64,000 bases of DNA from an uncultured Clostridia bacterium (lineage in GTDB: Bacteria > Bacillota > Clostridia > Oscillospirales > Ruminococcaceae): positions 5,811-69,810 of the forward strand of contig CANRFM010000008.1 of the NCBI GenBank assembly GCA_947629905.1, read 5' to 3'. This document shows, in pieces, positions 17,330-37,593 of this stretch. The position numbers were made by a program, and so were the translations under genes. The notes under the pieces are model-generated. The model was not told the origin of the DNA, did no database searches, and saw only the letters and a list, made by a program, of their open reading frames with translations. Positions within the stretch are counted from its first letter, which is position 1. Each line of letters opens with the position of its first letter.

Positions 17330-17339
17330 GTCTGGAGTG

Positions 17340-18659: not shown

Positions 18660-18670
18660 GAGATAAGGAT

Positions 18671-20023: not shown

Positions 20024-20037
20024 AAGGGGGAGTAACA

Positions 20038-21710: not shown

Positions 21711-21785
21711 AAAATGGGCGTGAGAGCATGGATCATAGCGTAATTTCAAAAACAGAGATCCATGAGGATCCATAGGGAGAATAGT

Positions 21786-22571
21786 ATGATCGAAAATCAA
21801 ATATACAGGTCACAGCATGATACCGTCTACGTGTCTGTCTATTCTGCCATTGGCGATAGAGAGAATCAGGAGGATTCTTATTTGATATGCAGCAGTGAGA
21901 ATGCGGTCCTTGCTGCGGTCTGTGACGGAATGGGCGGCAGAAAAGGCGGCGAGATCGCAAGCAAAACTGCCATTTCAGGGCTGAAAGAACATTTTGACGG
22001 CACGTTGTACCGGGACAGCTCTTTTTTTACGGATATTGTAGATGAACTGGATGCAAGAGTATTTTTTTTGACGGATCAGAGTAAAAGAAGACTGCACGCC
22101 GGGACAACACTTGCTTCTGTCACGCTCAATAACGGCAGTCTCGATTGGTTTTCAGTTGGTGACAGCCGTATCTATATCATGAGAAACGGGGAAACTATAC
22201 AAGCTACCAGAGATCATAATTATAAAGAAATGCTGATCGATCTGCTGCAGCGGGGGAACATTACAAGGGAGCAATTTGAAAAGGAAAAGAATAAACACGC
22301 TGCATTGACAAGTTATCTTGGGATCGGCGGTGTCAAATTATATGATATCAGCATCACACCATTGGTTCTGAAAGACGGTGACCTGATCATTGTGTCTACT
22401 GACGGATTTTACAATGCCGTGCCAATGGAACAGATCGCAGCTATGGGCAGGAAAAGCACAGATGAGATCATTCATGCGGTCGCAGAGATCTGGGAAGGCA
22501 GCGAAATGTCTGGCAGAGATAATACGACTTGTATTATCATCAAATACTGTGTGGAGGCAGATGAAAAATGA
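21786..22571 (+). CDS. PP2C-family Ser/Thr phosphatase 2
   Basis: GGGAGA lies upstream of the ATG at 21786 (the track ORF starts at 21762). Motifs are QEDSYLI, VCDGMGG, GDSRIY, TRDHN, VSTDGF and RDNTTCIII. Confidence 0.85.
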   Translation: MIENQIYRSQHDTVYVSVYSAIGDRENQEDSYLICSSENAVLAAVCDGMGGRKGGEIASKTAISGLKEHFDGTLYRDSSFFTDIVDELDARVFFLTDQSKRRLHAGTTLASVTLNNGSLDWFSVGDSRIYIMRNGETIQATRDHNYKEMLIDLLQRGNITREQFEKEKNKHAALTSYLGIGGVKLYDISITPLVLKDGDLIIVSTDGFYNAVPMEQIAAMGRKSTDEIIHAVAEIWEGSEMSGRDNTTCIIIKYCVEADEK

Positions 22572-23392
22572 GATTGACGAAATGTGAGAATAAACATTTT
22601 TACGATGCTGACAAGTATGACGAATGTCCGCATTGTGCAAGAAAAAAAGCAGCCAAATCGGGGACTCCGGCGCAAACAAAAAATACTTCACAAAAAACGG
22701 TCGCATTGATCCAAGACACGACAATGACGGGTACACGGGAAGAGAACAAGCCGTACCCACAGCCCGACCTGCCCGCTCCCGGTGCGGATGAAAAACCGCC
22801 GCATCCCAAAATTACAACACAGCTATTGGAACCGCATGAGCCCTCTCCTTCCGACAATGCAGAGGACACTTCCGCTGAGGCAGACAGGCATGATCCATCG
22901 GCAGAGGAAGAGAATGCTGCTGCCTCACAGGATGCATCTGATCTGGCACAGGCGGTTGCTTCATCCAGTATGTCGGTCCATACGGGAGCGGCCGCCAATG
23001 CAAGCCAAAAGACAGTAGCATTTTATGATGTCGGCGGGGTCGATCCGGTCGTAGGGTGGTTAGTTTGTGTGATCGGGGAATATGTCGGTGAATGCTTTAA
23101 CCTGAAGGCAGGTCAGAATTTTATCGGAAGATCCTTGAGTATGGATGTTGCACTGATCAATGAAAAAAGTGTGTCGAGGGAATTTCATGCCGGGATCATA
23201 TTTGACCCGAATGCAAAGCAGTTTTTTGCAGTACCGGGGCAAAGCAATGGATTGACCTATATCAATGGGCAACTCTTATTTTCTGCTGTCCCGCTGAAAT
23301 CCTATGATAAGATCCAGCTGGGAAAAAGCACATATATTTTCATGGCTTTTGCCGGAAATGATTTTATGTGGGATACTTATTTAGGAAAGTGA
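22568..23392 (+). CDS. FHA-domain protein 2 with N-terminal zinc-ribbon-like motif
   Basis: N-terminus is KCENKHFYDADKYDECPHC, followed by a P/A/E-rich linker. The C-terminal FHA reads FIGRSLSMDVALINEKSVSREFHAGII...SNGLTYINGQLL. Confidence 0.8.
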   Translation: MRLTKCENKHFYDADKYDECPHCARKKAAKSGTPAQTKNTSQKTVALIQDTTMTGTREENKPYPQPDLPAPGADEKPPHPKITTQLLEPHEPSPSDNAEDTSAEADRHDPSAEEENAAASQDASDLAQAVASSSMSVHTGAAANASQKTVAFYDVGGVDPVVGWLVCVIGEYVGECFNLKAGQNFIGRSLSMDVALINEKSVSREFHAGIIFDPNAKQFFAVPGQSNGLTYINGQLLFSAVPLKSYDKIQLGKSTYIFMAFAGNDFMWDTYLGK

Positions 23393-23396
23393 TAGA

Positions 23397-25361
23397 ATGA
23401 TGATAAAGTGTTACAATTGTTTCAAAGACTATGATGATGCAAACGCAGAGTGCCCCTACTGCGGTCATATACCGGGATCTGTAAAAAGAGAAGTCAATCA
23501 TCTCCCGCTGGGAAGTATCCTGATCGACCGGTATCTGATCGGAGAGGTCTGCGGCTTCGGCGGTTTTGGCGTGACTTATAAGGCATGGGATATGCAGCTT
23601 GAGGCGATCGTTGCTGTCAAGGAATATTTTCCGAATGGTGCTGTCAACAGAGTTCCCGGCACGGAAGATGTTGTGCTTTTCAGTGGAAATCGTCTGAAAG
23701 AATTTCATTTTGGATTGGTGCGTTTCATAGAAGAAGCCAAAATAACTGCGAAATATGTGTCACATAAAAACATCGTCAATGTATATAATTATTTTGAAAC
23801 CAATAAAACGGCATATATTGTCATGGAATATCTGGATGGGATAACACTGGAAAATTATTTGCAGCAGTTTGAAGACGACGGAGAAAGGATCGATATCGAT
23901 ACGGCTGTTGATATTACGCTGAATGTCTGCAATGCACTGAAAGCGATCCATGCAGACAATGTGATCCACCGGGATGTGAGTCCGGATAATATCTTCATAT
24001 GTTTCAATGGTACGTATAAGCTGTATGACTTTGGCGCTTCCAGATTTTCTCAGAATGAGGATCAGCATTTGACGATCATCCTGAAACCCGGCTATGCGCC
24101 GCCGGAGCAATATGAAAAGGTAAACACACAGGGACCATGGACGGATATTTATGCCTTGGGGGCAACGCTCTACAAAATGTTGACAGGCGTAAAGCCGGTC
24201 GAATCTATGAACCGGAAGATCGTTGATGAACTTCAGGAACCGAAGGAACTTGTTCCCGATATTCCGCAGTATCTTAACGATGCTGTCATGAAGGCAATGG
24301 CAGTGGAACAGCATTTGAGGTTTCAGAAAGTCGAAGAATTTGAGGCTGTCCTAAAAAAAGAAAGACCTGTAGAAGCGGTCAAGACCACCATAAAAAGAAA
24401 AAAGAGGAGAAGAATATCCGGTATCTGTGCAGCTGCAGCGATCGTCCTGACAGGATCAGGGATCTTAGCCTATAACTTGCTGCAGCAAAAGGAAGAAAAC
24501 ACGCTCCCTGCTGCATCGATCGATGTCTGGTATATCGCTGACAGTGATGAATTAACGGGAGCATTAGAAGACATCAAGGATGAATTTTGCAGCAGCTATG
24601 AAGGCGTTTCGGTCAATTATATTGCCATTGAACCGGACGAGTACGATGAGCGCCTCAGCGAAGCGGCACAGGCAGGCAATATGCCTGCGCTGCTGCAAAG
24701 TGATCTGATCGATACAGCCAAATACAGCTTTCTTTCATTAGAGCCTGTCATGGAGGAGATCGATCTGGATAACTACTATATTCTGGGCGACCAGCAAGCT
24801 CAGATCCTTGCGGATAATAAATTGCCGCTGGGTTTCAATATACCGCTGTTTTATATGAATACGACGCTATCCGGGTATTCTGGGGATCCTGTTTCAGAAT
24901 TAAAAGAGATCGCATCTGATGACAGCATGATCGCTGTTGCCCCTCAAACAGAAACTGTATTCCAGAAACTGTTTGGTGGTTATACGTATCAGTCAGCCAC
25001 TTGCGAGCAGTTTTTGGCAGGAGAAGCAGCTTTTTTGTTTTCAGATACAGCGCAGTTTTATGATGTACAGGAAGCACTTCCTGCCAGATTTAAGATGGTA
25101 AAGCTGGGGATAGATGAAGTGCCCTGTACGCTTTGCAATTGTTGGAGCCTTGGTGATTGCGGAGATGAGAAAAAAGAAAAAGTCGCAAGGCGGTTCCTTG
25201 CCTATATGCTGAGTGATAACTCACAGGACTATCTTTTTATCCGGTATAAGGAGCCGGGACTTCCTGTAAATCGAAATGCTCTGGGTGTATATGAGGATGT
25301 CTATCTGGAATTTGAATCCGTCATTTCACCTTCGGAGCAGTATGTATTTGAGCAGAAATAG
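23397..25361 (+). CDS. Hanks-type kinase 2: zinc ribbon, kinase domain, TM, solute-binding-protein-like ectodomain
   Basis: Motifs are CYNCFKDYDDANAECPYCG, GFGGFGVTYKA, VAVKEY, IHRDVSPDNIF and YDFGASR. The TM is ISGICAAAAIVLTGSGILAY. The ectodomain reads IDVWYIADSDELTGALEDIKDEF...AAQAGNMPALLQSD (SBP family-1-like). Confidence 0.8.
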   Translation: MMIKCYNCFKDYDDANAECPYCGHIPGSVKREVNHLPLGSILIDRYLIGEVCGFGGFGVTYKAWDMQLEAIVAVKEYFPNGAVNRVPGTEDVVLFSGNRLKEFHFGLVRFIEEAKITAKYVSHKNIVNVYNYFETNKTAYIVMEYLDGITLENYLQQFEDDGERIDIDTAVDITLNVCNALKAIHADNVIHRDVSPDNIFICFNGTYKLYDFGASRFSQNEDQHLTIILKPGYAPPEQYEKVNTQGPWTDIYALGATLYKMLTGVKPVESMNRKIVDELQEPKELVPDIPQYLNDAVMKAMAVEQHLRFQKVEEFEAVLKKERPVEAVKTTIKRKKRRRISGICAAAAIVLTGSGILAYNLLQQKEENTLPAASIDVWYIADSDELTGALEDIKDEFCSSYEGVSVNYIAIEPDEYDERLSEAAQAGNMPALLQSDLIDTAKYSFLSLEPVMEEIDLDNYYILGDQQAQILADNKLPLGFNIPLFYMNTTLSGYSGDPVSELKEIASDDSMIAVAPQTETVFQKLFGGYTYQSATCEQFLAGEAAFLFSDTAQFYDVQEALPARFKMVKLGIDEVPCTLCNCWSLGDCGDEKKEKVARRFLAYMLSDNSQDYLFIRYKEPGLPVNRNALGVYEDVYLEFESVISPSEQYVFEQK

Positions 25362-25420: not shown

Positions 25421-28400
25421 ATGAAAAAATTCTGTATGGGCTGTATGGAGCAGTATGATGAAGAATTTGAAGTATGTCCATTTTGCGGGTATGTAGATGG
25501 GACAACGGATGAAGATGCATTACATATCACGCCCGGAGAGATCCTGCATGAACGGTATATCGTTGGAAAAGTGATCGGTTTCGGGGGCTTTGGCGTTACT
25601 TATATCGGATGGGATGCTCTTTTAGAGCATAAGATCGCAGTAAAGGAATATATGCCCAGTGAGTTTTCAACAAGAGCCATGGGCACAAAAGAGGTAACTG
25701 TTTTCGGCGGGAAGAAGACCGAACAATTCAACAGCGGTCTGAAAAAATTCCACGAAGAAGCACACAAGCTTGCAAAATTCAACACGGATGATGGTATCGT
25801 GCGTGTTTATGATACATTTGAGGAGAACAACACCGCATACATCATCATGGAACTGTTAGAAGGGCAGACTTTAGCTTCGTACCTCCAGCAGGAAGGTAAG
25901 ATCCCCTATGAAAAGGCGGTCTCTATCATCCTGCCGATCGCACAGGCATTGAAGGATGTCCATGCTGCCGGTGTGATCCACCGTGATATTGCCCCGGACA
26001 ATATTTTTCTGACAAAGGATGGAAAAGTAAAGCTGATCGATTTTGGTGCGGCACGTTTTGCAACCACATCTCACAGCCGAAGTCTGTCCGTTCTGATCAA
26101 GCAGGGCTACTCACCGGAAGAACAGTACAGAAGCCGGGGAGATCAGGGCGCTTATACAGATGTATATGCTTTAGGTGCTGTGCTCTATCGGATGATCACC
26201 GGTGAAACACCGCCGGATGCTTTGGAACGCCGTGCTTTTTTAGAAAACAAGAAGAAAGATATTCTGCTCCCGATCACGAATTTTGCGAAAGATGTGCCAG
26301 AAAATATACAGGCAGCAATTTACAACGCAACAAATGTGCGCATTGAGGACCGCACACAGTCAGCGGATGAACTGATCGAAGAACTGACAACAGATCAACC
26401 GGTAAAACGGAAGAAAGGGAAGATCAAGGCAATAGATTTTCTGCGGTGGCCTTTATGGGCTAAGATCACTTTCCCCTCTCTTGCGGTACTGGTCATCACA
26501 TTGAGTGTATTATTTGCAACCGGCGTGATCGGATTTAAGAATTTTATCAAAGAAAAGATCTATGTCCCGGAGGGAATGGCAAGAGTTCCCTCGATCGTTA
26601 GTTCCAATATAGAAAGCGCAGATGACAGATTAGAAAAAGCAAATTTGCTGTACAGCATTTCCGGAAAAGAATATTCTTCGCTGATAGATGCCGATCTGAT
26701 ATTGTCTCAGAGCGTCAGCGGCGGCTCAGTAGTCTTACAAAATACGATCATCGACCTTATCATCAGCGGCGGTGCTGAAACGGCAGCCGTTCCGAATATT
26801 ATCGGAATGCCCCAAGACAGCGCAGCAGCGCTATTGGAAGAGTCAGGATTTCTGTACAAGATCGAATATGAATTCAGTGAAGCGATCGCAGAAGGCGGCA
26901 TCATCCGTCAAAGCGTTGCGCCGGATTCGGATTATCCGGTCGGCAATGAGATCACCATAACGGTCTCTAAAGGAAGAGATCCGGATCAGGAATATGAAGA
27001 GATCATGGTAAGTGTACCTGATTTTACAGGTCTGACCTATGATGAGGCATTAAAACTTGCGCAGGAACATCAGCTAATCATTATTGCAAAAGAAAAGGCT
27101 TACAGTGCTGAATTTGCAAAAGATACCGTAATGGGGCAAAGTGTTACGGCAGGCTCTGAGATCCTGAGCGGCAATACTGTGGAGCTTACTGTTTCACTTG
27201 GTATCCATATTATCAAGATCCCGGATGTGGTCTATAAAACAGAACAGGATGCCGTTAAAATACTGGAGGGGAACGAATTAAAGGCAAGCATCACCTATGA
27301 GAACAGTGAAACGATCAAGGCTGGACTTGTCATTTCGCAATCCCCCGGCAATGGCGCTGAAGCTTCCGCCGGAGATACCGTTACACTGGTCGTAAGTAAA
27401 GGCGGTACTGCTTTCAATATGCCCAATGTGGTTGGCATGGATGAAAACAGCGCCCGCACACTTTTAACGGGAAAAGGACTGTCGGTAACGGTCGCTTACG
27501 AATACAGCACCTCCACAGCTGCGGGCAATGTTCTGAAACAGAGCATTTCCGCAAATAGTTCTGTCAATCTCGGAACAGCCGTTCAGATCACCGTAAGCAG
27601 CGGAGAGGAACTCCTACAGGTCGCCAATGTCGTTGGCATGGCACAGAAAGATGCGGCAAACGCATTGAAAAATCAAGGCTTTACAGTTAAGGTCAATGAA
27701 AATTACAGCGAAACTGTAGAAAGCGGCAAGGTCATCAGTCAGTCACCGGAAGCAGGCTCCTCTCAGATCAAGAACACCATTGTTCTGTTGACAGTAAGCA
27801 AGGGCAAAGCTCCCATTGAAGTTCCGGATGTGACCGGTGTATCTCAGTCAAACGCTGAGTCTACAATGAAAGCCCTGAAACTTAACGTGAGCATTACAAA
27901 AGAATACAGCGAAACTGCCAGCTACGGCTCTGTCATTTCTCAAGATCCTCCTGCCGGTTCAAAAGCATACAGCGGCGATACGGTCAAACTTGTGATCTGT
28001 AAAGGAAGAGAGCCGGTCACGATCCCGAATGTAGTCGGGATGGACAGTGACACAGCCGCATCAAAGCTTGCAGACCTTGGATTTGTTGTGACCACGACAA
28101 AGCAATACAGTGACAGTGTAGCATCCGGGAAAGTCATTTCTCAATCGCCGGAAAGCGGCACGGGCTACAAGAACGATACGATCAGAATCGTAGTAAGTAA
28201 AGGAAAGTCCCCGGTCGCTCCTTCTGCCATCACTTTAGATCAGTCGAGTGTGACGCTGTATGTCGGCAGGATCAATTCCGCAGCGCAGCTCAGCGCAACA
28301 ATAACGCCGTCTAATGCAAGTGATAAAACGGTATCCTGGACTTCAAGCGACGAAAAGATCGCTGCTGTGACCTCAAATGGTTTTGTTTCCGCTGTAAGCG

Positions 28401-29731
28401 CAGGCACTGCTACGATCACTGCTGTGACCAATACAGGCGGGAAAAAGGCAGTATGTACAGTAAAAGTAATACAGCCCACGCTTACTCTTGATGTTTCGGG
28501 TGCAAATGTAACTGCCGGGATCAGTTACACGATCCAATGTACCTATAGTCCCACAAGCCAAAATATTACATGGAGCTCAAGTGATCCCAATGTGGCGAAA
28601 GTGGATAATGGAAAAGTTACCGCTGTTTCCCCCGGTGAAGCTGTGATCACTGCGGTCTCTGATTACGGCGTTTCCGCTTCATCCCAGATAACGGTAGAGG
28701 AAAGCGAGATATTCTCTTTTGACAAAACAAGTTTTTCGATCGTCGAAGGGGAAAAGGTCAACATCGGTTTGCACGTTGATGCACATGGTGTACTCAATGG
28801 CAGCAAGGGAGAGACAACTATCACCCCAACGGTCACAATGGCTTCTTCCTCCATTGCTGCATTCCAGCTATCCGGGAATAACGGTTACATCCAAGGCATA
28901 ATACCGGGTGAAGAAACACTCAGTTTCTCCTGCTGCGGAAAAACGATCCCGATCCGTTTAACTGTCCGGGCAAAATCGGTCTCAGAGATCTCTGTACTTT
29001 CCGGTCCGACCAAGGTCGATTATGAAAAAGGCGATACTTTAGATACTACAGGTCTTGTTTTGGATGTAAAATACGATAACGGAACATCCGAAACAGTAAA
29101 TTCCAATATTTCCTGTGATCCAGCCATACTGGATCAAGTCGGAACACAGGTAATAACCGTAGAGTATGGCGGCAAACAGACCACATTCACTGTAAATGTC
29201 AAGGAGAGCAGCTATGCAGCAGGAAATTGCGGTGATACCTGCTATTGGAAATTAAACAAAGCAAGCGGCGAACTGACCATCAGCGGAACAGGGCAAATGC
29301 AAACAAGCGCTTATGGTTATCCATGGGATGACTATAAAAACCTGATCACATCTGTAATTATAGAGGAGGGAGTAACTGCACTGGGCGATTATGCCTTTGT
29401 AGACTGTACCAAAATAACAAATGTCGCCTTTCCTGATTCTTTGAAGGGGATCCCAGAAGGTGCATTCCAAAATTGCATGGGATTAACTGCCATTACATTA
29501 GGTCCCAATATTGAATATATCCGAAGTGAAGCATTTATTTTCTGTCCCTACCTTGTCAACATCACAATACAAAATCCAACGTGTGATATAAGCGATACAT
29601 TCATTGCTAATTCGTATAAATATTACGGGACGGATGTTTATGTCATGGATCCGGTCATTTATGGATATTCCAATTCGACCGCCCAGCAGTTTGCGGATGC
29701 TTGCGGTTACACATTCAGTGCTTTAGACTAA
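25421..29731 (+). CDS. Hanks-type kinase 3: zinc ribbon, kinase domain, TM, about 8 PASTA repeats, Ig-like (Big_2-type) domains, LRR-like C-terminus
   Basis: Motifs are CMGCMEQYDEEFEVCPFCG, GFGGFGVTYIG, IAVKEY, IHRDIAPDNIF and IDFGAAR. The TM is AKITFPSLAVLVITLSVLFATGVIGF. There are eight ~65-aa units of the type VPNVVGM..D.A...L...GF......YS..V..G.VISQSP..G. Ig-like units such as ITPSNASDKTVSWTSSDEKIAAV follow. The C-terminus is BspA-type LRR-like (VTALGDYAFVDCTKITNVAFPDSLKGIPEGAFQNC). Confidence 0.85.
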   Translation: MKKFCMGCMEQYDEEFEVCPFCGYVDGTTDEDALHITPGEILHERYIVGKVIGFGGFGVTYIGWDALLEHKIAVKEYMPSEFSTRAMGTKEVTVFGGKKTEQFNSGLKKFHEEAHKLAKFNTDDGIVRVYDTFEENNTAYIIMELLEGQTLASYLQQEGKIPYEKAVSIILPIAQALKDVHAAGVIHRDIAPDNIFLTKDGKVKLIDFGAARFATTSHSRSLSVLIKQGYSPEEQYRSRGDQGAYTDVYALGAVLYRMITGETPPDALERRAFLENKKKDILLPITNFAKDVPENIQAAIYNATNVRIEDRTQSADELIEELTTDQPVKRKKGKIKAIDFLRWPLWAKITFPSLAVLVITLSVLFATGVIGFKNFIKEKIYVPEGMARVPSIVSSNIESADDRLEKANLLYSISGKEYSSLIDADLILSQSVSGGSVVLQNTIIDLIISGGAETAAVPNIIGMPQDSAAALLEESGFLYKIEYEFSEAIAEGGIIRQSVAPDSDYPVGNEITITVSKGRDPDQEYEEIMVSVPDFTGLTYDEALKLAQEHQLIIIAKEKAYSAEFAKDTVMGQSVTAGSEILSGNTVELTVSLGIHIIKIPDVVYKTEQDAVKILEGNELKASITYENSETIKAGLVISQSPGNGAEASAGDTVTLVVSKGGTAFNMPNVVGMDENSARTLLTGKGLSVTVAYEYSTSTAAGNVLKQSISANSSVNLGTAVQITVSSGEELLQVANVVGMAQKDAANALKNQGFTVKVNENYSETVESGKVISQSPEAGSSQIKNTIVLLTVSKGKAPIEVPDVTGVSQSNAESTMKALKLNVSITKEYSETASYGSVISQDPPAGSKAYSGDTVKLVICKGREPVTIPNVVGMDSDTAASKLADLGFVVTTTKQYSDSVASGKVISQSPESGTGYKNDTIRIVVSKGKSPVAPSAITLDQSSVTLYVGRINSAAQLSATITPSNASDKTVSWTSSDEKIAAVTSNGFVSAVSAGTATITAVTNTGGKKAVCTVKVIQPTLTLDVSGANVTAGISYTIQCTYSPTSQNITWSSSDPNVAKVDNGKVTAVSPGEAVITAVSDYGVSASSQITVEESEIFSFDKTSFSIVEGEKVNIGLHVDAHGVLNGSKGETTITPTVTMASSSIAAFQLSGNNGYIQGIIPGEETLSFSCCGKTIPIRLTVRAKSVSEISVLSGPTKVDYEKGDTLDTTGLVLDVKYDNGTSETVNSNISCDPAILDQVGTQVITVEYGGKQTTFTVNVKESSYAAGNCGDTCYWKLNKASGELTISGTGQMQTSAYGYPWDDYKNLITSVIIEEGVTALGDYAFVDCTKITNVAFPDSLKGIPEGAFQNCMGLTAITLGPNIEYIRSEAFIFCPYLVNITIQNPTCDISDTFIANSYKYYGTDVYVMDPVIYGYSNSTAQQFADACGYTFSALD

Positions 29732-29821
29732 AAGCGATCCCGATGCAGTTCCCGGCAGTTTTGAGCCTTGTGGAGACAAAAGACAGTTTGTCCTGTCAGA
29801 TATTATGAGAAGATCGGCACA

Positions 29822-29862
29822 GAGAGTTACCTCTGTGCCGATCCTTTTCTTTATCTATCAGC
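29822..29862 (+). terminator. Rho-independent terminator closing the long + strand gene run
   Basis: A 13-bp perfect stem gatcggcacagag / ctctgtgccgatc is followed by cttttcttt. Confidence 0.75.
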
Positions 29863-29986
29863 ATTTAACAGGGGCGGATAACGGCAAGCATTGACAAAGC
29901 AGATTTGCAGGTGAGATTTTTTGATCATGTACAGAAACGTACATTTTTCCCCCTATTCCGGCTTACTTACGAAAGGGGGTCAGGCA

Positions 29987-30301
29987 ATGGAACAAAAAAC
30001 GAAACTGGTTCTGGACGGGCTGGAGAAGCTTGCTTTCGGGCGTGTCAACGATGCAGTGCGGCTTGCCTTTGCGGATGAGATGCCGTCGCAGGCGGTGCTG
30101 TCCCGGATGAATCTGTTTAACGTTTCCTCGATCAAGCGGGTCAAGGGCGGCGGTGTGGAAATTCAGTTCTTCGACAGGCAGAAGGCACTGGAAAAGCTGT
30201 ACGACTTTGCCCATGCGGGGGAAAACGGCGCTGCGGCGGAAAGTCTCCTCGAAGCGCTGACGGGGGAGGATGCGGATGCGGTTCAGCAGGTTCTCCCCTA
30301 A
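29987..30301 (+). CDS. Phage terminase small subunit-like
   Basis: AAGGGGG lies upstream of the ATG at 29987. The protein is ~105 aa, and its end motif VEIQFFDRQKALEKLYDF resembles the conserved C-terminal block of small terminases. It is positioned upstream of terL. Confidence 0.55.
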   Translation: MEQKTKLVLDGLEKLAFGRVNDAVRLAFADEMPSQAVLSRMNLFNVSSIKRVKGGGVEIQFFDRQKALEKLYDFAHAGENGAAAESLLEALTGEDADAVQQVLP

Positions 30302-31526
30302 ACAAAAGCTCTGCCTGAAATGGTGGGCGATGCCGGAACTGCGGCAGTATGATGCGCTGATCTGTGACGGGGCAGTCCGCAGCGGCAAGACGCTTGCGAT
30401 GTCGCTGGGGTTTCTGTTCTGGGCGCAGGCTTGTGCGGACGGAGGGACGTTTGCGCTATGCGGTAAGACCATAACTTCCCTGCGGCGGAATGTCGTCCGT
30501 CCGCTTCAGGCGGTGCTGGAGGACTGCGGCTTTGATGTGCGGGAGAGGGTGAGCAAGAATTACCTCGATGTGACGGCGTTCGGGCACTGCAACCGGTTTT
30601 ACCTGTTCGGGGGGAAGGATGAAAGCTCGGCGGCGCTCATTCAGGGGATGACGCTGGGGGGCGTGTTCTTTGATGAAGTCGCTCTGATGCCACGTTCCTT
30701 TGTGGAACAGGCGATCGCACGGTGTTCGGTACGGCAGGCGAAGCTCTGGTTCAACTGCAATCCGGAGCACCCCTATCACTGGTTCTACCGGGAATGGATC
30801 TGCAAAGCGAAAGAAAAGCGTGCCCTGCACCTGCACTTCACCATGGAGGACAATCCCTCTCTGCTGGAGAGTGTAAAAGCACGCTACCGGAGAATGTACG
30901 GGGGGATGTTCTATGACCGCTTTGTCCTCGGCAAATGGACTGCACCGACAGGGCTGGTCTATCCGATGTTCGATGCAAGGCGGCACGTGACAAATGAGCT
31001 GCCGGAACGGTGTGACAGGTATGTGATCTCCTGCGACTACGGAACGATCAATCCTACTTCCATGGGACTGTGGGGCGAATCGGGCGGAGTCTGGTACAGG
31101 CTGCGGGAATACTACTATGCCGCAAGGAAAGAGGGCATTTCCCGTACCGATGAGCAGCACTATGCGGGGCTGGTACAACTCGCAGGGGAATTTCCGGTGG
31201 AGTGCGTCATTGTGGATCCGTCGGCGGCAAGCTTCATTGCGTGCATTGCGGCGCACAGGCAGTTCCGGGTCATTCCGGCTGACAATGCTGTGCTGACGGG
31301 GATCCGGCAGGTGAGTGAAGCCCTGCAGCAGGACAGGCTGCGGTTCTCGGCGGGGTGCAGCGACATCCTGCGGGAGTTCGGGCAGTATTGCTGGAAAGAG
31401 GACAGCGCCGGGGATGTTCCGAAAAAAGAAAACGACCATGCGATGGATGATATGCGCTATTTTGTCAGCACCATGCTGCATGGCACACAGAAAGAGGATT
31501 TTGTGGCGATCACAGTCGGGAGGTGA
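30270..31526 (+). CDS. Phage terminase large subunit (PBSX-type)
   Basis: Walker A is DGAVRSGKTLAMS and Walker B is GVFFDEVALM. The C-terminal nuclease block is DHAMDDMRYF. The gene overlaps terS by 32 nt. Confidence 0.85.
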   Translation: MRMRFSRFSPKQKLCLKWWAMPELRQYDALICDGAVRSGKTLAMSLGFLFWAQACADGGTFALCGKTITSLRRNVVRPLQAVLEDCGFDVRERVSKNYLDVTAFGHCNRFYLFGGKDESSAALIQGMTLGGVFFDEVALMPRSFVEQAIARCSVRQAKLWFNCNPEHPYHWFYREWICKAKEKRALHLHFTMEDNPSLLESVKARYRRMYGGMFYDRFVLGKWTAPTGLVYPMFDARRHVTNELPERCDRYVISCDYGTINPTSMGLWGESGGVWYRLREYYYAARKEGISRTDEQHYAGLVQLAGEFPVECVIVDPSAASFIACIAAHRQFRVIPADNAVLTGIRQVSEALQQDRLRFSAGCSDILREFGQYCWKEDSAGDVPKKENDHAMDDMRYFVSTMLHGTQKEDFVAITVGR

Positions 31527-31529
31527 CAT

Positions 31530-32678
31530 ATGCGATTCGGAAAGAAAAAAGAAAAGCTGCCGCTGCCGCAGGTGCAGACGGCAGCAAGAGAGCAGCTCTG
31601 TGAAACACCGGTACAGCTTTACAGCTATGCCTTGTTTGACAAGGTGCGGCGGACTGTGCCGATCGTGGATGCGGCGCTCTCGAAACTGGTGCGGCTGATC
31701 GGGTCATTTACCGTCAAATGCGGTGATGCTGCTCAACAGGCAGGGTTAGACCACTTTCTGCAGGAAGTACCGGTGGGGCTGACGGGGCAGTCGATCTACA
31801 GCTTTATTGACTGCTATTTAGACAGTCTTTTGGTCTGCGGCAATGCGGTCGGGGAAATTGTTCCCGGCAAGGGAAACCGCTGTATTGCCGGGCTGTGGAA
31901 CGGCAATGCTGCGGACATTATCGTCCGCCCCGGTGCTGCACCGCTCGAACGGCAGTACCTGCTGCGCACGCCGGACGGGGAACAGCTGCTCCCGCACCCG
32001 GAACGGATCCTGTTTTCTGCTTTGAAACCGCCGCCGGGCGGCATTTACGGGGTATCTGTCTTACAGGGGCTGCCGGTGTTTGCAGATATTCTGCTGCGCA
32101 TTTATGAATGCGTGGGGCAGAACTTCGACAGGGCTGGCAATATCCGCTATGCGGTGACGTATAAGCCGTCCGGTGATCCGACGGAGGCTGCCTATGCGGC
32201 TGACCGGGCGAAAACCATTGCACGGGAATGGTCGGAGGGGATGCAGGCTGCCCGGCGGGGGGAGATACGGGATTTTGTTTCAGTCGGGGATGTGGACATT
32301 AAGGTGATCGGCGCTGAGGGGTCGATGCCGGACACGGAAATACCTGTCCGGCAGCTCCTCGAACAGATGCTGTCAAAGCTCTCTGTACCGCCGTTTCTGC
32401 TCGGGCTGAGCTGGTCCTCGACGGAACGGATGTCGGCGCAGCAGGCGGATATTCTCACTTCGGAGCTGGAATATTACCGGAGACTGCTTGAGCCGGTCAT
32501 CTGCCGCATTGCACAGGCGTATTTGCAGCTTTCAGGCACTTACACGACAGTCGAAGTCGTGTGGGACAATATCAATTTACAGGATGAAGTGGAGCTTGCA
32601 AGGGCAAGACTCTACAACGCACAGGCAGCAGAGGCGGAACAGGCACTCTCTGCCGTACAGCAGAAGGAGGAATTGTAA
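31530..32678 (+). CDS. Phage portal protein
   Basis: The protein is 382 aa and lies immediately after terL. GGGAGG is the SD. The call rests on size and position, and the sequence feel is consistent with HK97-type portals. Confidence 0.65.
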   Translation: MRFGKKKEKLPLPQVQTAAREQLCETPVQLYSYALFDKVRRTVPIVDAALSKLVRLIGSFTVKCGDAAQQAGLDHFLQEVPVGLTGQSIYSFIDCYLDSLLVCGNAVGEIVPGKGNRCIAGLWNGNAADIIVRPGAAPLERQYLLRTPDGEQLLPHPERILFSALKPPPGGIYGVSVLQGLPVFADILLRIYECVGQNFDRAGNIRYAVTYKPSGDPTEAAYAADRAKTIAREWSEGMQAARRGEIRDFVSVGDVDIKVIGAEGSMPDTEIPVRQLLEQMLSKLSVPPFLLGLSWSSTERMSAQQADILTSELEYYRRLLEPVICRIAQAYLQLSGTYTTVEVVWDNINLQDEVELARARLYNAQAAEAEQALSAVQQKEEL

Positions 32679-33643
32679 TGTACAACGAAACAAAACTCGA
32701 AAAGGGACTGTATCACCTTGCGAACAAGAGCTTTTTGCAGGCGCTCGAAGAGGCAGACCCGGATGTGCAGTATGCGGGTACACCGCTCGGAAAGCTCGAT
32801 GCCTATGAACGGCAGCTCAAGCGGTTTGACATTCGTGTCAGCGGTCCGCTGTGTGACAGGGTGGAGAAATTCTTTACCACAACGGAAAGCGCCGTGCTGT
32901 TTCCGGAATTCGTGCGCAGGGCTGTGATGCAGGGCATGGAGGATTCTGTGCTCGGAGACATTACGGCTGTAGTCTCCCGCAGTGAGTCGAACCGCTATCA
33001 GGGTATTGATCTGACGGATACGGCTGCCTATACGACGACAAATGCCGGGGTGGAAATGCCGGCTTCTTCCATCGGGGAATGCACGGATGCGATCACCCTC
33101 ACGAAATATGGCAGACTTGTCAAGGCGACCTATGAGGCTGTCCGTCAGCAGAGACTGGATGTGTTCGCTCTCATGCTGCGCAGGGTCGGAAAGTGTTTGG
33201 CGGATGCGATGCTTTCTGCGGCTTTGAACGTCCTGAAAACCGGGGCAACTTCCGTAACGACTGCCGCTTCAACGCTGACTTATGGGGATGTTGCGGGGCT
33301 GTACGGGAGTTTCAAGAGCTTTTCTTTGCAGGCGGTGCTGGCTTCTCCGGCGGTCATTGCGCAGATCTTGGCTATGACGCAGATGGAGCATACGAGTGCA
33401 GCGGATGCCAAAGACCTGCGCCTGCCGTTCGGGGCAAGGCTGATCTGCTGTCCGCAGCTGGACGACAAGACGGTGCTTGGGCTGGATACGGATTTTGCGC
33501 TGGAGCAGATCCAGAGCAGTGATGTGGTTCTGGAGACGGACAAGCTCATTGACAGACAGCTTGACTGCATTGGCATTTCTGTGAATATCGGCTTCCGCAG
33601 ACTGATGAAGGATGCGGTGCAGGTCGTGACCATTCAGGCGTAA
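32678..33643 (+). CDS. Major capsid protein-like (HK97 fold type, no obvious delta domain)
   Basis: There is a TAATG overlap with the portal gene. The block ITLTKYGRLVKATYEAVRQQRLDVFALMLRRVGKCLADAMLSAAL resembles the conserved MCP core pattern. Confidence 0.55.
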   Translation: MYNETKLEKGLYHLANKSFLQALEEADPDVQYAGTPLGKLDAYERQLKRFDIRVSGPLCDRVEKFFTTTESAVLFPEFVRRAVMQGMEDSVLGDITAVVSRSESNRYQGIDLTDTAAYTTTNAGVEMPASSIGECTDAITLTKYGRLVKATYEAVRQQRLDVFALMLRRVGKCLADAMLSAALNVLKTGATSVTTAASTLTYGDVAGLYGSFKSFSLQAVLASPAVIAQILAMTQMEHTSAADAKDLRLPFGARLICCPQLDDKTVLGLDTDFALEQIQSSDVVLETDKLIDRQLDCIGISVNIGFRRLMKDAVQVVTIQA

Positions 33644-33687
33644 GCGGGGCGGGGGCTTTTGCTCCCGTCTCCGGAAAGGAGGCAGCT

Positions 33688-34491
33688 ATGACGGACATGG
33701 AAAAGCTGAACCGCTTTACACGGCGGGCGCTCACGGAGGAGGAGGTCTATCTCTTTGATGTGATCCTCTGTGACAATGATGTGGACAGGGATATGGAACG
33801 GTTTTCTGATGCGGCTTTAGAGCAGATGCAGAAGCTCTTTGTCGGGAAAACGGGGATCTTCGATCACAATATGCGCTCCGTGGGACAGACGGCTCGCATT
33901 TATGATGCGGCTGTTGTGAAAGAACCGGACAAGCGCACGAAAGACGGCAGGACTTACTGTTCGCTCCGGGCGAAAGCCTATATGGTGCGCACGGACTCGA
34001 ATGCTGACCTGATCCGGGAAATCGAGGGCGGTATCAAGAAAGAGGTCAGCGTTTCCTGCTCGGCAGCAAAGCGTATTTGCTCCGTCTGCGGGGCTGACAG
34101 GGCGCAGGCTGTCTGTGCGCACGTGCCGGGCAGGACGTATGGCGACAAGTTCTGTCATACGATCTTAGATGATGTGCAGGATGCGTATGAATGGAGCTTT
34201 GTGGCAGTGCCGGCGCAGGTCGGGGCAGGTGTTACCAAACATTTCAGCGGAAAGGAGAATGACGGCATGGAACAGGTACAGGAGACTTTGCAGGAAGTAG
34301 AAAAAATGCTCCGGGCGGAGGTACTCAACCTTTGCGGCGGAACGGGGACGGTTTCAAAGGCGATGCAGCTTGCAGCAGAAAAAATGGACGTGCGGGAGCT
34401 GATGCAGTTCCGGCAGGCGCTGCTTGCTTCGGAAACGGCAGAGAATGTGCAGCTTGCGGGGGCGCAGCTCGATGCTTTTGTGCAGAGATAA
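33688..34491 (+). CDS. Prohead protease-like / scaffold-like protein
   Basis: LFDVILCDNDVDRDMERFSDAAL...GIFDHN...EVSVSC...EWSFVAVPAQ resembles the S78 prohead protease layout. It has a Cys cluster CSVCGADRAQAVCAH and a helical acidic C-terminus. Confidence 0.45.
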   Translation: MTDMEKLNRFTRRALTEEEVYLFDVILCDNDVDRDMERFSDAALEQMQKLFVGKTGIFDHNMRSVGQTARIYDAAVVKEPDKRTKDGRTYCSLRAKAYMVRTDSNADLIREIEGGIKKEVSVSCSAAKRICSVCGADRAQAVCAHVPGRTYGDKFCHTILDDVQDAYEWSFVAVPAQVGAGVTKHFSGKENDGMEQVQETLQEVEKMLRAEVLNLCGGTGTVSKAMQLAAEKMDVRELMQFRQALLASETAENVQLAGAQLDAFVQR

Positions 34492-34503
34492 GGGGGACTG
34501 GGT

Positions 34504-34857
34504 TTGAATATTCAGATGATCAGTTCGCTGTTTGTGCTTTTTTCCGGTGAGACGGACAGCAGACGGTATTTGCCGCTGATCACGGCTGCGGTATATGAAG
34601 TGATGCAGCAGCTGCGCCCGGAAGTGGACGGTTCGGAGGCAAGGCTCTGCTATCTGGCGGCGGCGGTGGCTAATCTTCGCTATGTGCAGATGTTCGGGGC
34701 AAGGGAATCGGCGCTGGCGACCTATGCGGGGAATGTCACGAGAAATTCGGACTTTTCCCCTGCCCGCTTTGCGAAACAGCTTGTGCTTTCCTACAGGCGG
34801 CTCTGTGCGGACTTGCTGAAAGAAGAGGATTTTGTATTTACTGGCGTCAGGGGGTGA
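34504..34857 (+). CDS. Small phage-module protein (possible head-tail adaptor)
   Basis: TTG start 7 nt after AAGGGGGA. The protein is 117 aa. The call rests on position after the head genes only. Confidence 0.4.
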   Translation: MNIQMISSLFVLFSGETDSRRYLPLITAAVYEVMQQLRPEVDGSEARLCYLAAAVANLRYVQMFGARESALATYAGNVTRNSDFSPARFAKQLVLSYRRLCADLLKEEDFVFTGVRG

Positions 34858-35269
34858 GGGCTTGCTGGCATTGACGGAACAAGTGGTCGGACACCTGAAA
34901 GCGGCTGGGCTGCGGGAGGTCTATCCTGCCTTTGATGCTGTGCCGTTTTCACGCAAATCGCAGACACTTTTTACGGTCATTACACCGGAAGCCATACAGC
35001 TCGATCTCCCTTTCCCTGACAACAGGGGGGATGTCCGTCCGTTTACGGCACGGTTCCGTGCTTCGGTGCTGATCCCGATGGGCTCACCGGTGCAGTGGGC
35101 GGAGGATTTCTTTTACGAAAAACTGCTGCCGTATCTGGAGCAGATGGGCAGCGTACTGTGTGAGATCCATGCACCGCAGACAGATATTGCACTGGGGCGT
35201 GTGGTGTTTGCGGCATCGTTCCGGCTGCGGGGAATGTATATCGATGACGGAGAGGGGGGCGCACTATGA
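34832..35269 (+). CDS. Small phage-module protein (possible head completion/neck)
   Basis: The ORF is tightly packed with its neighbours. The start is uncertain; an alternative TTG at 34862 follows GGGGTGAGG. Confidence 0.4.
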   Translation: MYLLASGGEGLLALTEQVVGHLKAAGLREVYPAFDAVPFSRKSQTLFTVITPEAIQLDLPFPDNRGDVRPFTARFRASVLIPMGSPVQWAEDFFYEKLLPYLEQMGSVLCEIHAPQTDIALGRVVFAASFRLRGMYIDDGEGGAL

Positions 35270-35658
35270 GCTTGCAATTACGGCAGATGCAGGATATTCC
35301 GTTACTGGTCAATGATATTCTGCTGCGCCTGACGGACTATGCTATTACGGGCGGCTGTCTGGTGCGGGAAGAGGGTACGGCAGAGGGAACGGCAGTGATC
35401 ACTGCCTGCTACCCCAAAGGCACAAGGCTGACACTGAAGGGCAGACTGACGGACATGAACACGGACACGGCAAAAACGGCAGCGGCACTCGATGACATTC
35501 TGCATAGCGGTTCGGCTTGTAAGGTGACGATCGGGGCGCTGCACTGCAGTGAACTGCGGCTGGTGGGGTATGCACTTTCCGGGGGAGAAGATTTCCCGGT
35601 GCTGAAGCTGGTGTTCTACACGCAGGCGGCGCTTACGGAGATGACAGAATGGAACTGA
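35266..35658 (+). CDS. Small phage-module protein, unknown
   Basis: The protein is 130 aa, with an ATGA overlap with the upstream ORF. Confidence 0.4.
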   Translation: MSLQLRQMQDIPLLVNDILLRLTDYAITGGCLVREEGTAEGTAVITACYPKGTRLTLKGRLTDMNTDTAKTAAALDDILHSGSACKVTIGALHCSELRLVGYALSGGEDFPVLKLVFYTQAALTEMTEWN

Positions 35659-36575
35659 CACTGCGGCTGTATGCGGGGGACAGCTATACGGATGAGCACA
35701 CGTGTATCGGGCTTTCCCTCGAACGGGAAGCGTATACGCCATATACGCAGCTTTCGGCTTTGTTTCTTTCTACAGCGCCGGACGGGTATGGGGCAGTCAG
35801 CCGGATAGAACTGCTTTGGGGGGATGTGCTCCTGTGCTGCGGGACAACAGACCTTGTGGACTGTTATTGGAAAGACGGCGCACGTCTGGTGCGGGTGCGC
35901 TCCCGGAGTTTTACGGCGGCACTGCTGCAAAATGAATTTCCGCAGGGGATGTATACGAATATCACCTTTGCGCAGCTGATGACGGATTTCTGTCAGATGC
36001 CGCACGTCACCTACGAAAACGAAACACGCACCAATTATATTGCCGTCAAAGAGGGGACGACTGCATGGGACTGCGTGGTGGCATTCGGCTATAAGCTGAC
36101 AAATCACTACCCCTATATCGTGGACAACTGTGTGATGCTCAGTCCGCCGGCTGCGCCGGTGCTGCATACGGTCGATGCTGCACAGGTGACGGCTTACGGG
36201 GAGACGGCTGACTCGACAAGGATCATCAGCCATTATCACATGGAAGAAATAGACGGCACGCCGAATGCCTATGAATCGGTAAATGCTGCGGCGGCGGCTT
36301 CGGAGATCGTGCGGCACAAGCAGATCACCTTTGACAGGCAGTTTGCCTATTTCCCGATGCAGGCACTATCGTTCCGGAATGCCTATTCCTGCCGGCAGAG
36401 CAGGTCGAAATACCTTGTCTACAACGGCTTTGGCAATGAGCAGATCGGGGACAAGGTCAGCTTCGGGGCATTTATGGACAATATGACGATCAGCCGGGTA
36501 CTGCTCACGGTCGGGCAGCAAGGTGTCCGTACCAAGCTGTGGGCGTATCAGGATGAATTTTATAATACGAAATAG
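35649..36575 (+). CDS. Phage-module protein, unknown (308 aa)
   Basis: This is the last ORF of the module and overlaps the upstream ORF by 10 nt. No motif was recognised. Confidence 0.45.
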   Translation: MELTLRLYAGDSYTDEHTCIGLSLEREAYTPYTQLSALFLSTAPDGYGAVSRIELLWGDVLLCCGTTDLVDCYWKDGARLVRVRSRSFTAALLQNEFPQGMYTNITFAQLMTDFCQMPHVTYENETRTNYIAVKEGTTAWDCVVAFGYKLTNHYPYIVDNCVMLSPPAAPVLHTVDAAQVTAYGETADSTRIISHYHMEEIDGTPNAYESVNAAAAASEIVRHKQITFDRQFAYFPMQALSFRNAYSCRQSRSKYLVYNGFGNEQIGDKVSFGAFMDNMTISRVLLTVGQQGVRTKLWAYQDEFYNTK

Positions 36576-36626: not shown

Positions 36627-36666
36627 GACCCCGGTGCTTTTTACGGCACCGGGGTCGTTGTTTTTT
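36627..36666 (+). terminator. Rho-independent terminator after the phage-like module
   Basis: An 11-bp perfect stem gaccccggtgc / gcaccggggtc is followed by gttgtttttt. Confidence 0.75.
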
Positions 36667-36674
36667 CTGGCAGG

Positions 36675-36989
36675 CTATTTCTCCTGCTTGGTTTCTGCTT
36701 CATCATAACAGGGAAAGTGGGGTACTTCTTCTCCCGTTGTATCGTAGAAATACTGTTTCAGCTCGTCAAGACGCTTGTCCAGTCTTTTGAAATCCCGTGG
36801 CTTCTCGCATTTGAGCGCATCGTGCCGCCAAATATGTTGGGCTTCTCTCATATTTTTCACAAACGGATGTTCCTCGTCATCCATATTCATGTTGTGATTG
36901 AACATATAGCGGAAGTATATTGCCGCTACATCATTGGCATAGTCCATAAGGCATTCCGTTTCAAGTGTCCGGTCAAACTTCTTTTGCAT
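36675..36989 (-). CDS. Hypothetical protein (104 aa)
   Basis: ATG at 36989 follows GGAGAA. The sequence MQKKFDRTLETECLMDYANDV... has no recognised family. It is the last gene of the minus-strand string. Confidence 0.5.
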   Translation of the reverse strand: MQKKFDRTLETECLMDYANDVAAIYFRYMFNHNMNMDDEEHPFVKNMREAQHIWRHDALKCEKPRDFKRLDKRLDELKQYFYDTTGEEVPHFPCYDEAETKQEK

Positions 36990-37017
36990 GACTGTTCTCC
37001 TTTCATGAAATGGCTGT

Positions 37018-37593
37018 TTACTTGAGGTCAATATATTTCCAGTAGCCTTTCAGATACACTGCACCCGAAATCACCGTCAGCAGCACGGAGAGCCACACCA
37101 GTACGGTCATGACAAGATTTACAATACCTGCGGCACTTCCGGAAAAGGTCGGGACAAATTCGCAGACCGAAAACCAGAGGAGAATGCCCACGATCGTCAC
37201 CATGGTGAATGCGGTTTTCAGCTTGCCCCAGATACCGGCTGCGACTACAACACCTTTTTCTGCTGTCACAAGGCGCAGTCCGCTTACCATGAATTCCCGT
37301 GCGGCAATAATCGTCACCACAATGCCATTGACCGGGCAGTCATACACGTCCGACAGCACTGCCAATGCCGCAAGCACGAGAATTTTATCCGCAAGCGGGT
37401 CTGCGAATTTACCGAATGTTGTAATTAAATTGTCCCGCCGGGCAATTTTCCCGTCCAGTGCATCCGTAATAGATGCTGCCGCAAATATCAGCAGGGCGCA
37501 GCTCACGTGAAACGGGAAATTCACATACATACACACCAGAAACACCGGGACAAGGCAGATGCGCAGCAAGGTCAGCTTGTTCGGGAGATTCAT
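37018..37593 (-). CDS. pgsA: CDP-diacylglycerol--glycerol-3-phosphate 3-phosphatidyltransferase
   Basis: The CDP-alcohol phosphatidyltransferase motif DALDGKIARRDNLITTFGKFADPLADK is present, and the protein is polytopic. Confidence 0.85.
   Translation of the reverse strand: MNLPNKLTLLRICLVPVFLVCMYVNFPFHVSCALLIFAAASITDALDGKIARRDNLITTFGKFADPLADKILVLAALAVLSDVYDCPVNGIVVTIIAAREFMVSGLRLVTAEKGVVVAAGIWGKLKTAFTMVTIVGILLWFSVCEFVPTFSGSAAGIVNLVMTVLVWLSVLLTVISGAVYLKGYWKYIDLK

Follow-up and report, generated by a model that had tools for sequence, protein, structure and literature searches.

Introduction

What is a compact run of phage-type packaging, head and neck genes doing among the housekeeping genes of an uncultured Clostridia bacterium of the Ruminococcaceae, and is it the remains of a virus or a machine that the host has made its own? 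The run, which we call the module, consists of nine plus-strand open reading frames (ORFs) at positions 29987-36575 of a 64-kb stretch of contig CANRFM010000008.1 (assembly GCA_947629905.1); that whole stretch is the window, and all positions given below count from its first nucleotide. A preliminary description of this DNA had called the module tail-less and regulator-less, and had offered three origins for it: a domesticated particle-forming module resembling a gene transfer agent (GTA), a satellite that relies on the tails of a helper phage, or simple prophage decay, against which it counted the intact frames of all nine ORFs. Here we report that the same nine genes recur in 58 species-level loci, that the module has been domesticated and is inherited vertically with the host chromosome, a conclusion that we hold with high confidence, and that structural models assign its last two genes to a tail tip. 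By analogy with known systems, the module is probably, at a strength short of firm, a domesticated and vertically inherited GTA-like "viriform" operon for a small DNA-filled particle with a minimal tail tip.

GTA-like packaging of host fragments of 4.6-8.9 kb is prominent in Ruminococcaceae and Oscillospiraceae (PMC12946183, Nat Commun 2026). According to the same source, the GTA of Faecalibacterium prausnitzii (FpGTA) is encoded by an operon I of 10.5 kb and ten ORFs and an operon II with baseplate, fibre and lysis genes; its capsids measure 40 nm and are apparently tail-less, its small terminase (TerS) lacks a DNA-binding domain, and both FpGTA and RcGTA are multi-locus systems. The supplement annotates in operon I a major capsid protein (MCP) of the N4-gp56 family, a Prp-like protease and a tail nozzle. 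"Very short GTA" events are also described there, of 4.6 kb in Ruminococcus_C callidus, 4.07 kb in HGM11616 and 6.3 kb in QANA01, and the part of the paper available to us reports no gene cluster for the R. callidus or HGM11616 events (PMC12946183). A 2026 preprint lists further candidate GTAs in gut Clostridia, with the clusters not resolved.

Results

A nine-gene module that diverges with its host

To find relatives, we scanned a single genome for each GTDB species and recovered the genes at the loci by tblastn and ORF calling. The scan returned 58 species-level loci in Ruminococcus and Oscillospiraceae, all of them in metagenome-assembled genomes (MAGs), and every locus that is long enough carries the same nine genes in collinear order over 6.4-7.4 kb, with ORF9 last. 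The copies are full-length in 48 of 48 cases for the large terminase (TerL), 51 of 51 for the portal, 35 of 35 for ORF8 and 59 of 60 for ORF9. The ORF9 homologs, all 300-320 aa long, come from Ruminococcus and Oscillospiraceae MAGs, and an exhaustive profile search, clustered at 50% identity, puts the family at 489 clusters, with E < 1e-30 for 127 and with nearly all of them about 300-320 aa in length. One carrier is a Ruminococcus flavefaciens MAG (L044); no isolate carrier was confirmed by the ORF9 homolog search and cluster look-up, which gave MAG proteins only. Housekeeping genes flank the module on both sides, in the window as in the loci with Pfam annotation. In 15-16 species aroA, a metallo-beta-lactamase (MBL)-fold hydrolase gene, rlmH and a radical SAM gene lie upstream and spoVS and ymdB downstream, and the synteny comparison at pgsA that the preliminary description had proposed found the module followed by pgsA and rimO in four loci, window included.

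The ratio of nonsynonymous to synonymous substitution rates (dN/dS) was computed for the window against its nearest relative (L011, 94% ORF9 identity). Every gene of the module lies between 0.012 and 0.38 (Table 1). The six largest module genes have a synonymous divergence (dS) of about 0.30-0.36, and the flanking core genes one of 0.18-0.36. Among the 11 species that share the aroA-MBL-rlmH-radical SAM flanks, protein identity of the module and of the flanks is strongly correlated (Mantel r = 0.94, a value that none of 5000 permutations reached), with mean pairwise identities of 72.7% and 75.5%, respectively. Low dN/dS, host-like dS and correlated divergence together mean long vertical inheritance under selection, and of the options first put forward it is the domesticated one that these data strongly support. 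The two terminase genes, terS and terL, rank among the most constrained of the nine, which puts DNA packaging itself under selection.

The preliminary description had also named what would speak against its reading, namely relatives that lack the module at this site and carry a full prophage with the same genes elsewhere. Nothing of the kind was found, and no cultured phage among 50,697 phage records carries the capsid gene of the module.

Packaging and head genes

The nine ORFs are tightly packed or overlap, as had been described, with gaps of at most 44 nt, and the identification of TerL, portal and capsid was borne out by Pfam and PHROG matches (Table 1). TerL has both a Walker A ('GAVRSGKT') and a Walker B ('VFFDE') motif.

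The assignment of TerS stands in part: the first gene does match Terminase_2, but the match lies below the Pfam cut-off and covers only profile positions 64-128 of 141, a segment that we read as the TerS oligomerisation core. In distant relatives TerS is about 160 aa long, with an N-terminal extension that carries the conserved motif F..Y...G...EAA..AGF...TA and that we read as the helix-turn-helix (HTH) domain of Terminase_2; this long-TerS group includes L044, L048, L049, L051 and L052, and its clearest example is a protein of 162 aa (L069) with a Terminase_2 match. The TerS proteins of the window clade and of the L063-68 clade begin straight at the core. Because the match is limited to positions 64-128 and the extension is missing in the window clade, the window TerS appears to be a truncated Terminase_2 protein without the N-terminal HTH DNA-binding domain.

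That ORF5 is protease- or scaffold-like, as had been suggested, could not be confirmed from the window protein, for which there was no Pfam match at E <= 0.1 and no usable match in a PDB search. Its homolog in L002 (46% identical) matches Peptidase_S78_2 (XkdF) at 4.6e-5, and the residues His60, Ser121, C131, C134, C143 and H145 are invariant. The order of the genes is portal-MCP-ORF5 in most loci and portal-ORF5-MCP in L063-68 and L001-3, where ORF5 takes the canonical position of the protease. With moderate confidence, ORF5 is probably an XkdF/S78_2-like prohead serine protease with a C-terminal, helical, scaffold-like tail. Cys131, Cys134, Cys143 and His145 form a cluster inside the putative protease domain that looks like a zinc-binding insertion; we know of no such Cys3-His insertion described for prohead proteases.

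Table 1. Positions and properties of the module genes and of the signals around them in the window
Feature	Coordinates	Strand	Length (aa)	Basis of assignment	dN/dS
Left boundary, intrinsic terminator of the upstream kinase gene	29812..29853	+		hairpin 29812-29843 (stem 13 bp, 8 GC pairs), then T-run CTTTTCTTTA	
Possible sigma-A promoter	29891..29920	+		TTGACA, 18-nt spacer, extended -10 TGaGATTTT; read by eye	
Palindrome ATGTAC-AGAAAC-GTACAT	29927..29944	+		window copy ATGTACAGAAACGTACAT; family consensus TTGYAY-N6-RTRCAA	
TerS-like small terminase	29987..30301	+	104	Terminase_2 E 0.0012	0.012
TerL large terminase, ATPase and RNaseH-like nuclease domains	30270..31526	+	418	Terminase_6N 1.5e-11, Terminase_3, Terminase_6C; phrog_2 1.3e-49	0.11
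Portal protein	31530..32678	+	382	Phage_portal 6.8e-11; phrog_30703 1.5e-136	0.11
MCP	32678..33643	+	321	Phage_capsid_4 3.1e-14; phrog_3922 2e-63	0.075
ORF5	33688..34491	+	267	phrog_16951 1.4e-91 (PHROG without assigned function)	0.085
ORF6, neck protein, presumed head-tail adaptor	34504..34857	+	117	gene position only	0.09
ORF7, neck protein, possible gpU-like tail terminator or stopper	34832..35269	+	145	weak profile matches to lambda gpU	0.38
ORF8, predicted tail-tube-fold protein (Dit, tube-initiator or tube-like ring)	35266..35658	+	130	structural model	0.37
ORF9, predicted gp27/Mu gp44-type baseplate hub, always last in the module	35649..36575	+	308	structural model	0.145
Operon-ending intrinsic terminator	36627..36666	+		hairpin 36627-36656 (stem 12 bp, 9 GC pairs), then T-run	

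Neck and tail tip

Initial Pfam and PHROG scans gave no match for ORF6, ORF7, ORF8 or ORF9 of the window, and when the scans were extended to all sequences in the alignments of ORF6, ORF7 and ORF8, the matches stayed at noise level. The structural comparison that had been suggested for the unassigned ORFs was the step that placed two of them. The AlphaFold2 model of ORF9, built on 22 homologs, has a predicted local distance difference test score (pLDDT) of 79 and a predicted template modelling score (pTM) of 0.77, and Foldseek matched it to the Neisseria 43-kDa and MuSo2 tail proteins, Mu gp44 and VgrG at E 4e-14 to 1e-12 and, down to E 1e-7, to pyocin and diffocin hubs and T4 gp27, with a template modelling score (TM) of about 0.6. 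By its model, then, ORF9 is a baseplate hub of the gp27/Mu gp44 type, and at its short length it has no spike or effector extension. A tblastn search with ORF9 against phage records found no match, and an hhalign comparison of the hub profile with the last ORF of the sister module in L002 gave nothing significant.

For ORF8, a PDB profile search returned no usable match. Its AlphaFold2 model (pLDDT 69) matched baseplate tube-like chains of E217 and Pa193 at 1e-5, the N-domain of the SPP1 distal tail protein (Dit) at 9e-5, the neck and tube chains of RcGTA (6toa_G/6tba_50) at 3-6e-4, and the tube proteins of monocin and diffocin, all within E 1e-5 to 6e-4 and at a TM of about 0.6. The model thus gives ORF8 a tail-tube/Dit fold. 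Neither the ORF8 nor the ORF9 model had a nozzle-like match.

The remaining two small genes are harder to name. ORF7 resembles lambda gpU weakly, with E 0.039 in a PDB profile search and, by hhalign, a probability of 43% and E 2.5e-4 over equivalent positions, so that it is possibly a gpU-like tail terminator or stopper; hhalign against SPP1 gp16.1, SPP1 gp17 and ORF8 gave nothing significant. ORF6 is conserved in all loci and had no significant match in Pfam, PHROG or a PDB profile search, nor by hhalign against lambda FII and SPP1 gp15; from its gene position it is presumed to be the head-tail adaptor. With a tube fold in ORF8 and a hub fold in ORF9, the module would encode a head, a neck and a tail-tip stub rather than a head alone, and on these models the label "tail-less" no longer fits.

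A conserved palindrome upstream of terS

The label "regulator-less" holds in one respect, as no regulator gene lies in cis, and fails in another, as terS is preceded by a conserved palindrome. The window copy, of 18 bp, lies 43 nt before the terS ATG and is the single match in the 64 kb. Across 42 loci, which include distant clades and a contig from a virus-like particle (VLP) preparation, the palindrome stands 45-60 nt upstream of the terS start. Exact sites number 34 in 1.04 Mb of loci, 28 of these 34 at the terS position, where shuffled sequences lead one to expect about 1.2. The core pairs are complementary in 37-41 of the 41 unique sites, with covariation from C-G to T-A, and the geometry is 5-N6-5, which looks CRP/FNR-like. 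Homology between the window and L011 starts at 29916, just 5' of the palindrome, and the palindrome therefore belongs to the conserved unit.

What the palindrome does can be narrowed by comparing clades. Where TerS is short, tracts of A and T lengthen the palindrome into a hairpin with a U-run behind it; the U-run is missing where TerS is long. The stability of the hairpin ranges from -3.9 to -24.6 kcal/mol across loci. Because stability varies and the U-run is missing in the long-TerS clade, and the core is conserved all the same, we favour a candidate operator bound by a trans-acting regulator; it could also be a leader hairpin or attenuator, and for the same reasons an intrinsic terminator is unlikely to be the whole story. 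A search of the leader region against Rfam matched no family. The possible sigma-A promoter in front of the palindrome is weak, was not called by a promoter scan and is not conserved in L011. In some loci a CodY-box-like sequence, AATTTTCWGAAAATT, lies just 5' of the palindrome.

Relatives in viral databases

Searched against the 50,697 phage records, the MCP found only five unannotated "Bacteriophage sp." contigs, all from human faecal VLP preparations. Three such records, labelled "UNVERIFIED: Bacteriophage sp." and likewise from faecal VLPs, carry sister modules: MT836604.1 (L001), MT835508.1 (L002) and MT835769.1 (L003). In MT835508, of 46.7 kb, the sister module is surrounded by genes for RpoA, RnfC, ApbE, MgtC and ABC transporters, and on that account the record is a fragment of a bacterial chromosome. 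In IMG/VR more than 564 contigs carry relatives of the MCP, nearly all of them fragments of 3-10 kb; the longer ones end at ORF9 and continue with genes on the opposite strand.

A less reduced relative from a sister lineage is found at 7452-11204 of the IMG/VR contig IMGVR_UViG_3300000482_000093 (L146). Its hub is followed by ORFs of 111, 114, 357, 189 and 155 aa, of which the 357-aa ORF is a Baseplate J protein (PDB match to diffocin CD1371 at 6e-16; Mu gp47); the sizes of the other four may be read, on size alone, as those of gp25-like and gpI-like wedge proteins. All of these genes are missing from the window and from the 10 kb around every nine-gene module. Baseplate J behind the hub suggests an ancestor with a baseplate of the Mu/P2 type.

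Boundaries and neighbourhood

We inspected the 64 kb of the source genome and, in the relatives, 10 kb on either side of the module. Two intrinsic terminators bracket the module, as had been reported, with the first about 10 nt away from the position previously given (29822-29862, where we find a hairpin at 29812-29843 and its T-run); the second is also kept in L011. The earlier statement that there are no flanking direct repeats agrees with our search, which found no att-like repeats around the module, and the window holds no tRNA gene. As had also been said, integrase, repressor, replication, tape-measure and lysis genes were not found, and in the roughly 15 kb around the module, where the genes are those of the host, there is no other regulator gene and no sheath or fibre gene either. 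The neighbouring pgsA is there, and rimO, recX and recA, identified by motifs and orthologs, follow it downstream. Base composition, said to resemble that of the adjacent core genes, does so on one side: GC is 0.56-0.58 in the module and mostly 0.52-0.58 in the downstream block, but 0.43-0.49 in the upstream kinase block.

Synteny with L011 ends exactly at the 5' edge of the module. Upstream of 29916 the window has a low-GC block (25421-29916) with a Ser/Thr kinase of 1436 aa, and L011 carries unrelated genes there. On visual inspection, and from tblastn matches to LRR_5 proteins, the kinase has a repeat region and an LRR_5-like C-terminus. Before it, at 11518-25361, lies a signalling and pilus-like neighbourhood of host genes, with a 1407-aa DUF5702 protein, a prepilin peptidase (Peptidase_A24), a WG-repeat/TPR protein, two FHA proteins, two PP2C phosphatases and two further Hanks-type kinases. 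At a greater distance from the module, the window encodes prmC, a two-component system, citrate synthase, RNase R and a GGDEF protein.

Between the module terminator and pgsA, a 118-aa ORF on the minus strand (36675-37031) matches Epsilon_antitox (PF08998, 2e-6), and no zeta toxin gene adjoins it; the segment 36667-37016 is entirely missing from L011. A repeat of about 60-85 nt (86% identity), perhaps a small mobile or REP-like element, occurs at 54157-54215 and 54365-54449 of the window, far from the module, and at 2012-2071 and 10925-11008 of L011, directly after ORF9. In six loci (L007, L010, L027, L040, L041 and L052) tandem genes for LRR_5 (BspA-like) surface proteins adjoin the module. 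These proteins may be attachment partners or a coincidence, and as receptor-binding partners we set them aside, since they adjoin the module in few loci only. In L069, at 864-1601, genes for a Glyco_hydro_25 (lysozyme-family) protein and a TatD DNase lie about 3 kb upstream of the module and are not conserved elsewhere.

Comparison with known systems

Set beside FpGTA, the module belongs to the same bacterial order, has a chromosomal operon of TerS, TerL, portal, protease or scaffold, and MCP with neither integrase nor replication genes, and appears to share a TerS without a DNA-binding domain. The particles of FpGTA appear tail-less or short-tailed, and FpGTA is present almost throughout its genus. 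The differences are as plain. The module takes 6.6 kb and nine ORFs, not 10.5 kb and ten; where FpGTA has a Prp-like cysteine protease between portal and MCP, the module has the probably XkdF-like ORF5; and its MCP matches Phage_capsid_4, while that of FpGTA is annotated as N4-gp56, the two systems being compared here by annotation. In place of a podovirus tail nozzle it has a predicted tube-fold ring and gp27-type hub, which would make its tail parts the legacy of a different phage lineage. No counterpart of the second, lysis and fibre operon of FpGTA is known for the module. What is new is thus a GTA-like module that is more compact than FpGTA, of a different tail lineage, and widely conserved.

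RcGTA spans about 14-15 kb and includes a tail tube, a tape measure, a distal tail protein, a hub and a megatron; its TerS, too, has no DNA-binding domain. With it and the other alphaproteobacterial GTAs the module shares a vertically inherited cluster under purifying selection and the presence of a hub, and ORF8 resembles the RcGTA tube and neck proteins at the level of the fold (6toa_G, 6tba_50). RcGTA keeps its lysis and attachment genes at other loci. The module, by contrast, has no tape measure, no separate pair of tube and Dit and no fibres; no sequence homology is detectable and the phylum is another.

Capsid-forming phage-inducible chromosomal islands (cf-PICIs) are similar in being compact packaging, capsid and connector modules without a full tail. 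They are, however, mobile elements with an integrase, regulatory and replication genes and att sites, none of which the chromosomally fixed module has, and they depend on helper tails where the module has ORF8 and ORF9 as predicted tail-tip proteins of its own. Hubs of the Mu/P2/diffocin type (Mu gp44, P2 gpD, T4 gp27) have the fold predicted for ORF9, and in L146 Baseplate J follows the hub just as in Mu gp44-gp47; unlike those systems, the nine-gene form has no wedge, sheath, spike or tape measure beside the hub. Tailocins and PBSX-like particles have a sheath or long tube, a tape measure and a baseplate, and no such ORFs were seen in the module or its flanks. Of the features that define GTAs, the module shows a chromosomal structural and packaging cluster with no genes for integration, excision or replication found in the window or in the annotated flanks of relatives; it also shows vertical inheritance with purifying selection and a TerS that seems to lack its DNA-binding domain.

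Discussion

The GTA-like function that we propose for the module is drawn from analogy, from the retained and highly constrained terminase genes and from the HTH-less TerS. How such a particle might work can be sketched from its parts. A host-encoded factor acting at the palindrome would switch the operon on in part of the population, and the MCP would assemble on the portal with ORF5 as scaffold and protease. A sequence-unspecific TerS-TerL motor would then use a headful mechanism to load the heads with DNA from any part of the chromosome, after which ORF6 and ORF7 would close the portal. A hexameric ring of ORF8 and a trimeric hub of ORF9 would mount directly on the neck and, with no tube polymer or tape measure, leave a stub that looks like that of a podovirus. 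Release, and probably the receptor-binding parts, would come from genes elsewhere in the genome, which would match RcGTA and operon II of FpGTA.

Several considerations weigh against this proposal. Particles, packaged DNA and transfer are predicted here from genes, and purifying selection shows that the genes are useful and does not specify gene transfer. A search for genes of receptor binding, lysis or regulation found none in the 64 kb of this genome or in the 10 kb to each side of the module in the relatives. One hallmark of GTAs, a capacity smaller than the encoding locus, can be gauged only from fragment lengths in related taxa (4.07-6.3 kb, PMC12946183; the module has 6.6 kb). Among the single genes, the protease assignment of ORF5 is weak and transitive, ORF6 and ORF7 have no significant assignment, and the ORF8 model is only moderately confident. 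Lastly, the carriers are all MAGs, so that artefacts of assembly or binning cannot be fully excluded, and against this stands the recurrence of the same architecture in independent assemblies.

A more specific version of the proposal deserves mention as a tentative one, on the doubtful side. It holds that the module is the machine behind the "very short GTA" packaging of about 4-5 kb in Ruminococcus_C and related gut Clostridia, domesticated independently of FpGTA, with a tail of new architecture in which ring and hub are set on the neck without tube or tape measure, and with a host regulator acting through the palindrome, and that it may be the smallest self-contained DNA-packaging particle known.

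One other explanation, a serious contender that we nonetheless judge to fall short of even, is a refinement of the GTA-like operon rather than a true rival of it. Here the module would be the structural half of a split element whose wedge, fibre and lysis genes lie elsewhere, and the complete particle would be short-tailed with a baseplate of the Mu/P2 type. L146, with Baseplate J and four further ORFs after its hub, points this way, as does the multi-locus nature of FpGTA and RcGTA; on the other side, genes of the Baseplate J or wedge type are absent from the window and from the 10 kb around the module in every locus.

Rather improbable, yet the weightiest of the true rivals, is a domesticated particle that serves a purpose other than transfer, be it killing or adhesion, the release of extracellular DNA or protein, or an anti-phage decoy. 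A parallel would be PBSX, a DNA-packaging particle with the action of a bacteriocin. Conservation and selection do not specify a function, many systems use gp27-like hubs for membrane attack or plugging, no receptor-binding protein or fibre was found in the module or its flanks, and the same caveat is raised for FpGTA in PMC12946183. The low dN/dS of TerS and TerL speaks for packaging as the selected activity, however, and the module has no sheath, long tube or toxin domain and only a small hub that ends without a spike or effector extension.

A cf-PICI-like satellite, or an immobilised remnant of one, that builds its own heads and borrows the tails of a helper phage is very unlikely. The likeness is real in the gene content, since TerS, TerL, portal, protease, MCP and connectors resemble the morphogenesis modules that cf-PICIs reportedly carry. 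But neither an integrase, alpA, a replication gene nor an att repeat accompanies the module in the flanks inspected, its divergence follows that of host genes and its chromosomal sites are fixed, and a tube-fold ring and hub of its own would block the attachment of helper tails; a satellite was among the original options, and an integrase-bearing one is disfavoured. An ordinary decaying prophage, reduced by deletion to its head module, would account for the phage-derived genes, the GC somewhat above that of the upstream flank and the incomplete tail, but is effectively refuted by nine genes intact across 58 species with dN/dS well below 1, by a dS equal to that of host genes, by a correlated divergence that also contradicts recent horizontal spread, and by a conserved cis element, with no relaxed selection, truncated genes or patchy distribution to be seen.

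For viral databases, these results imply that hundreds of 3-10 kb "viral" contigs apparently stem from this host-borne element, or from a sister of it, and not from phages, and the same appears to hold for the GenBank "Bacteriophage sp." record MT835508. For the gut Clostridia, the gene cluster of a GTA has been experimentally pinned down only for Faecalibacterium (FpGTA), and the GTA-like module described here is a candidate source of the 4-6 kb "very short GTA" signals. It is a candidate defined in sequence, and its spread is wide: at least 58 species carry it, its hub family comprises 489 clusters and relatives of its MCP are found on more than 564 contigs of IMG/VR; among its carriers are fibre-degrading Ruminococcus of rumen and gut. 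An active module would add to Bacillota a second, independently domesticated type of GTA, the most compact yet, and would show how little tail is needed.

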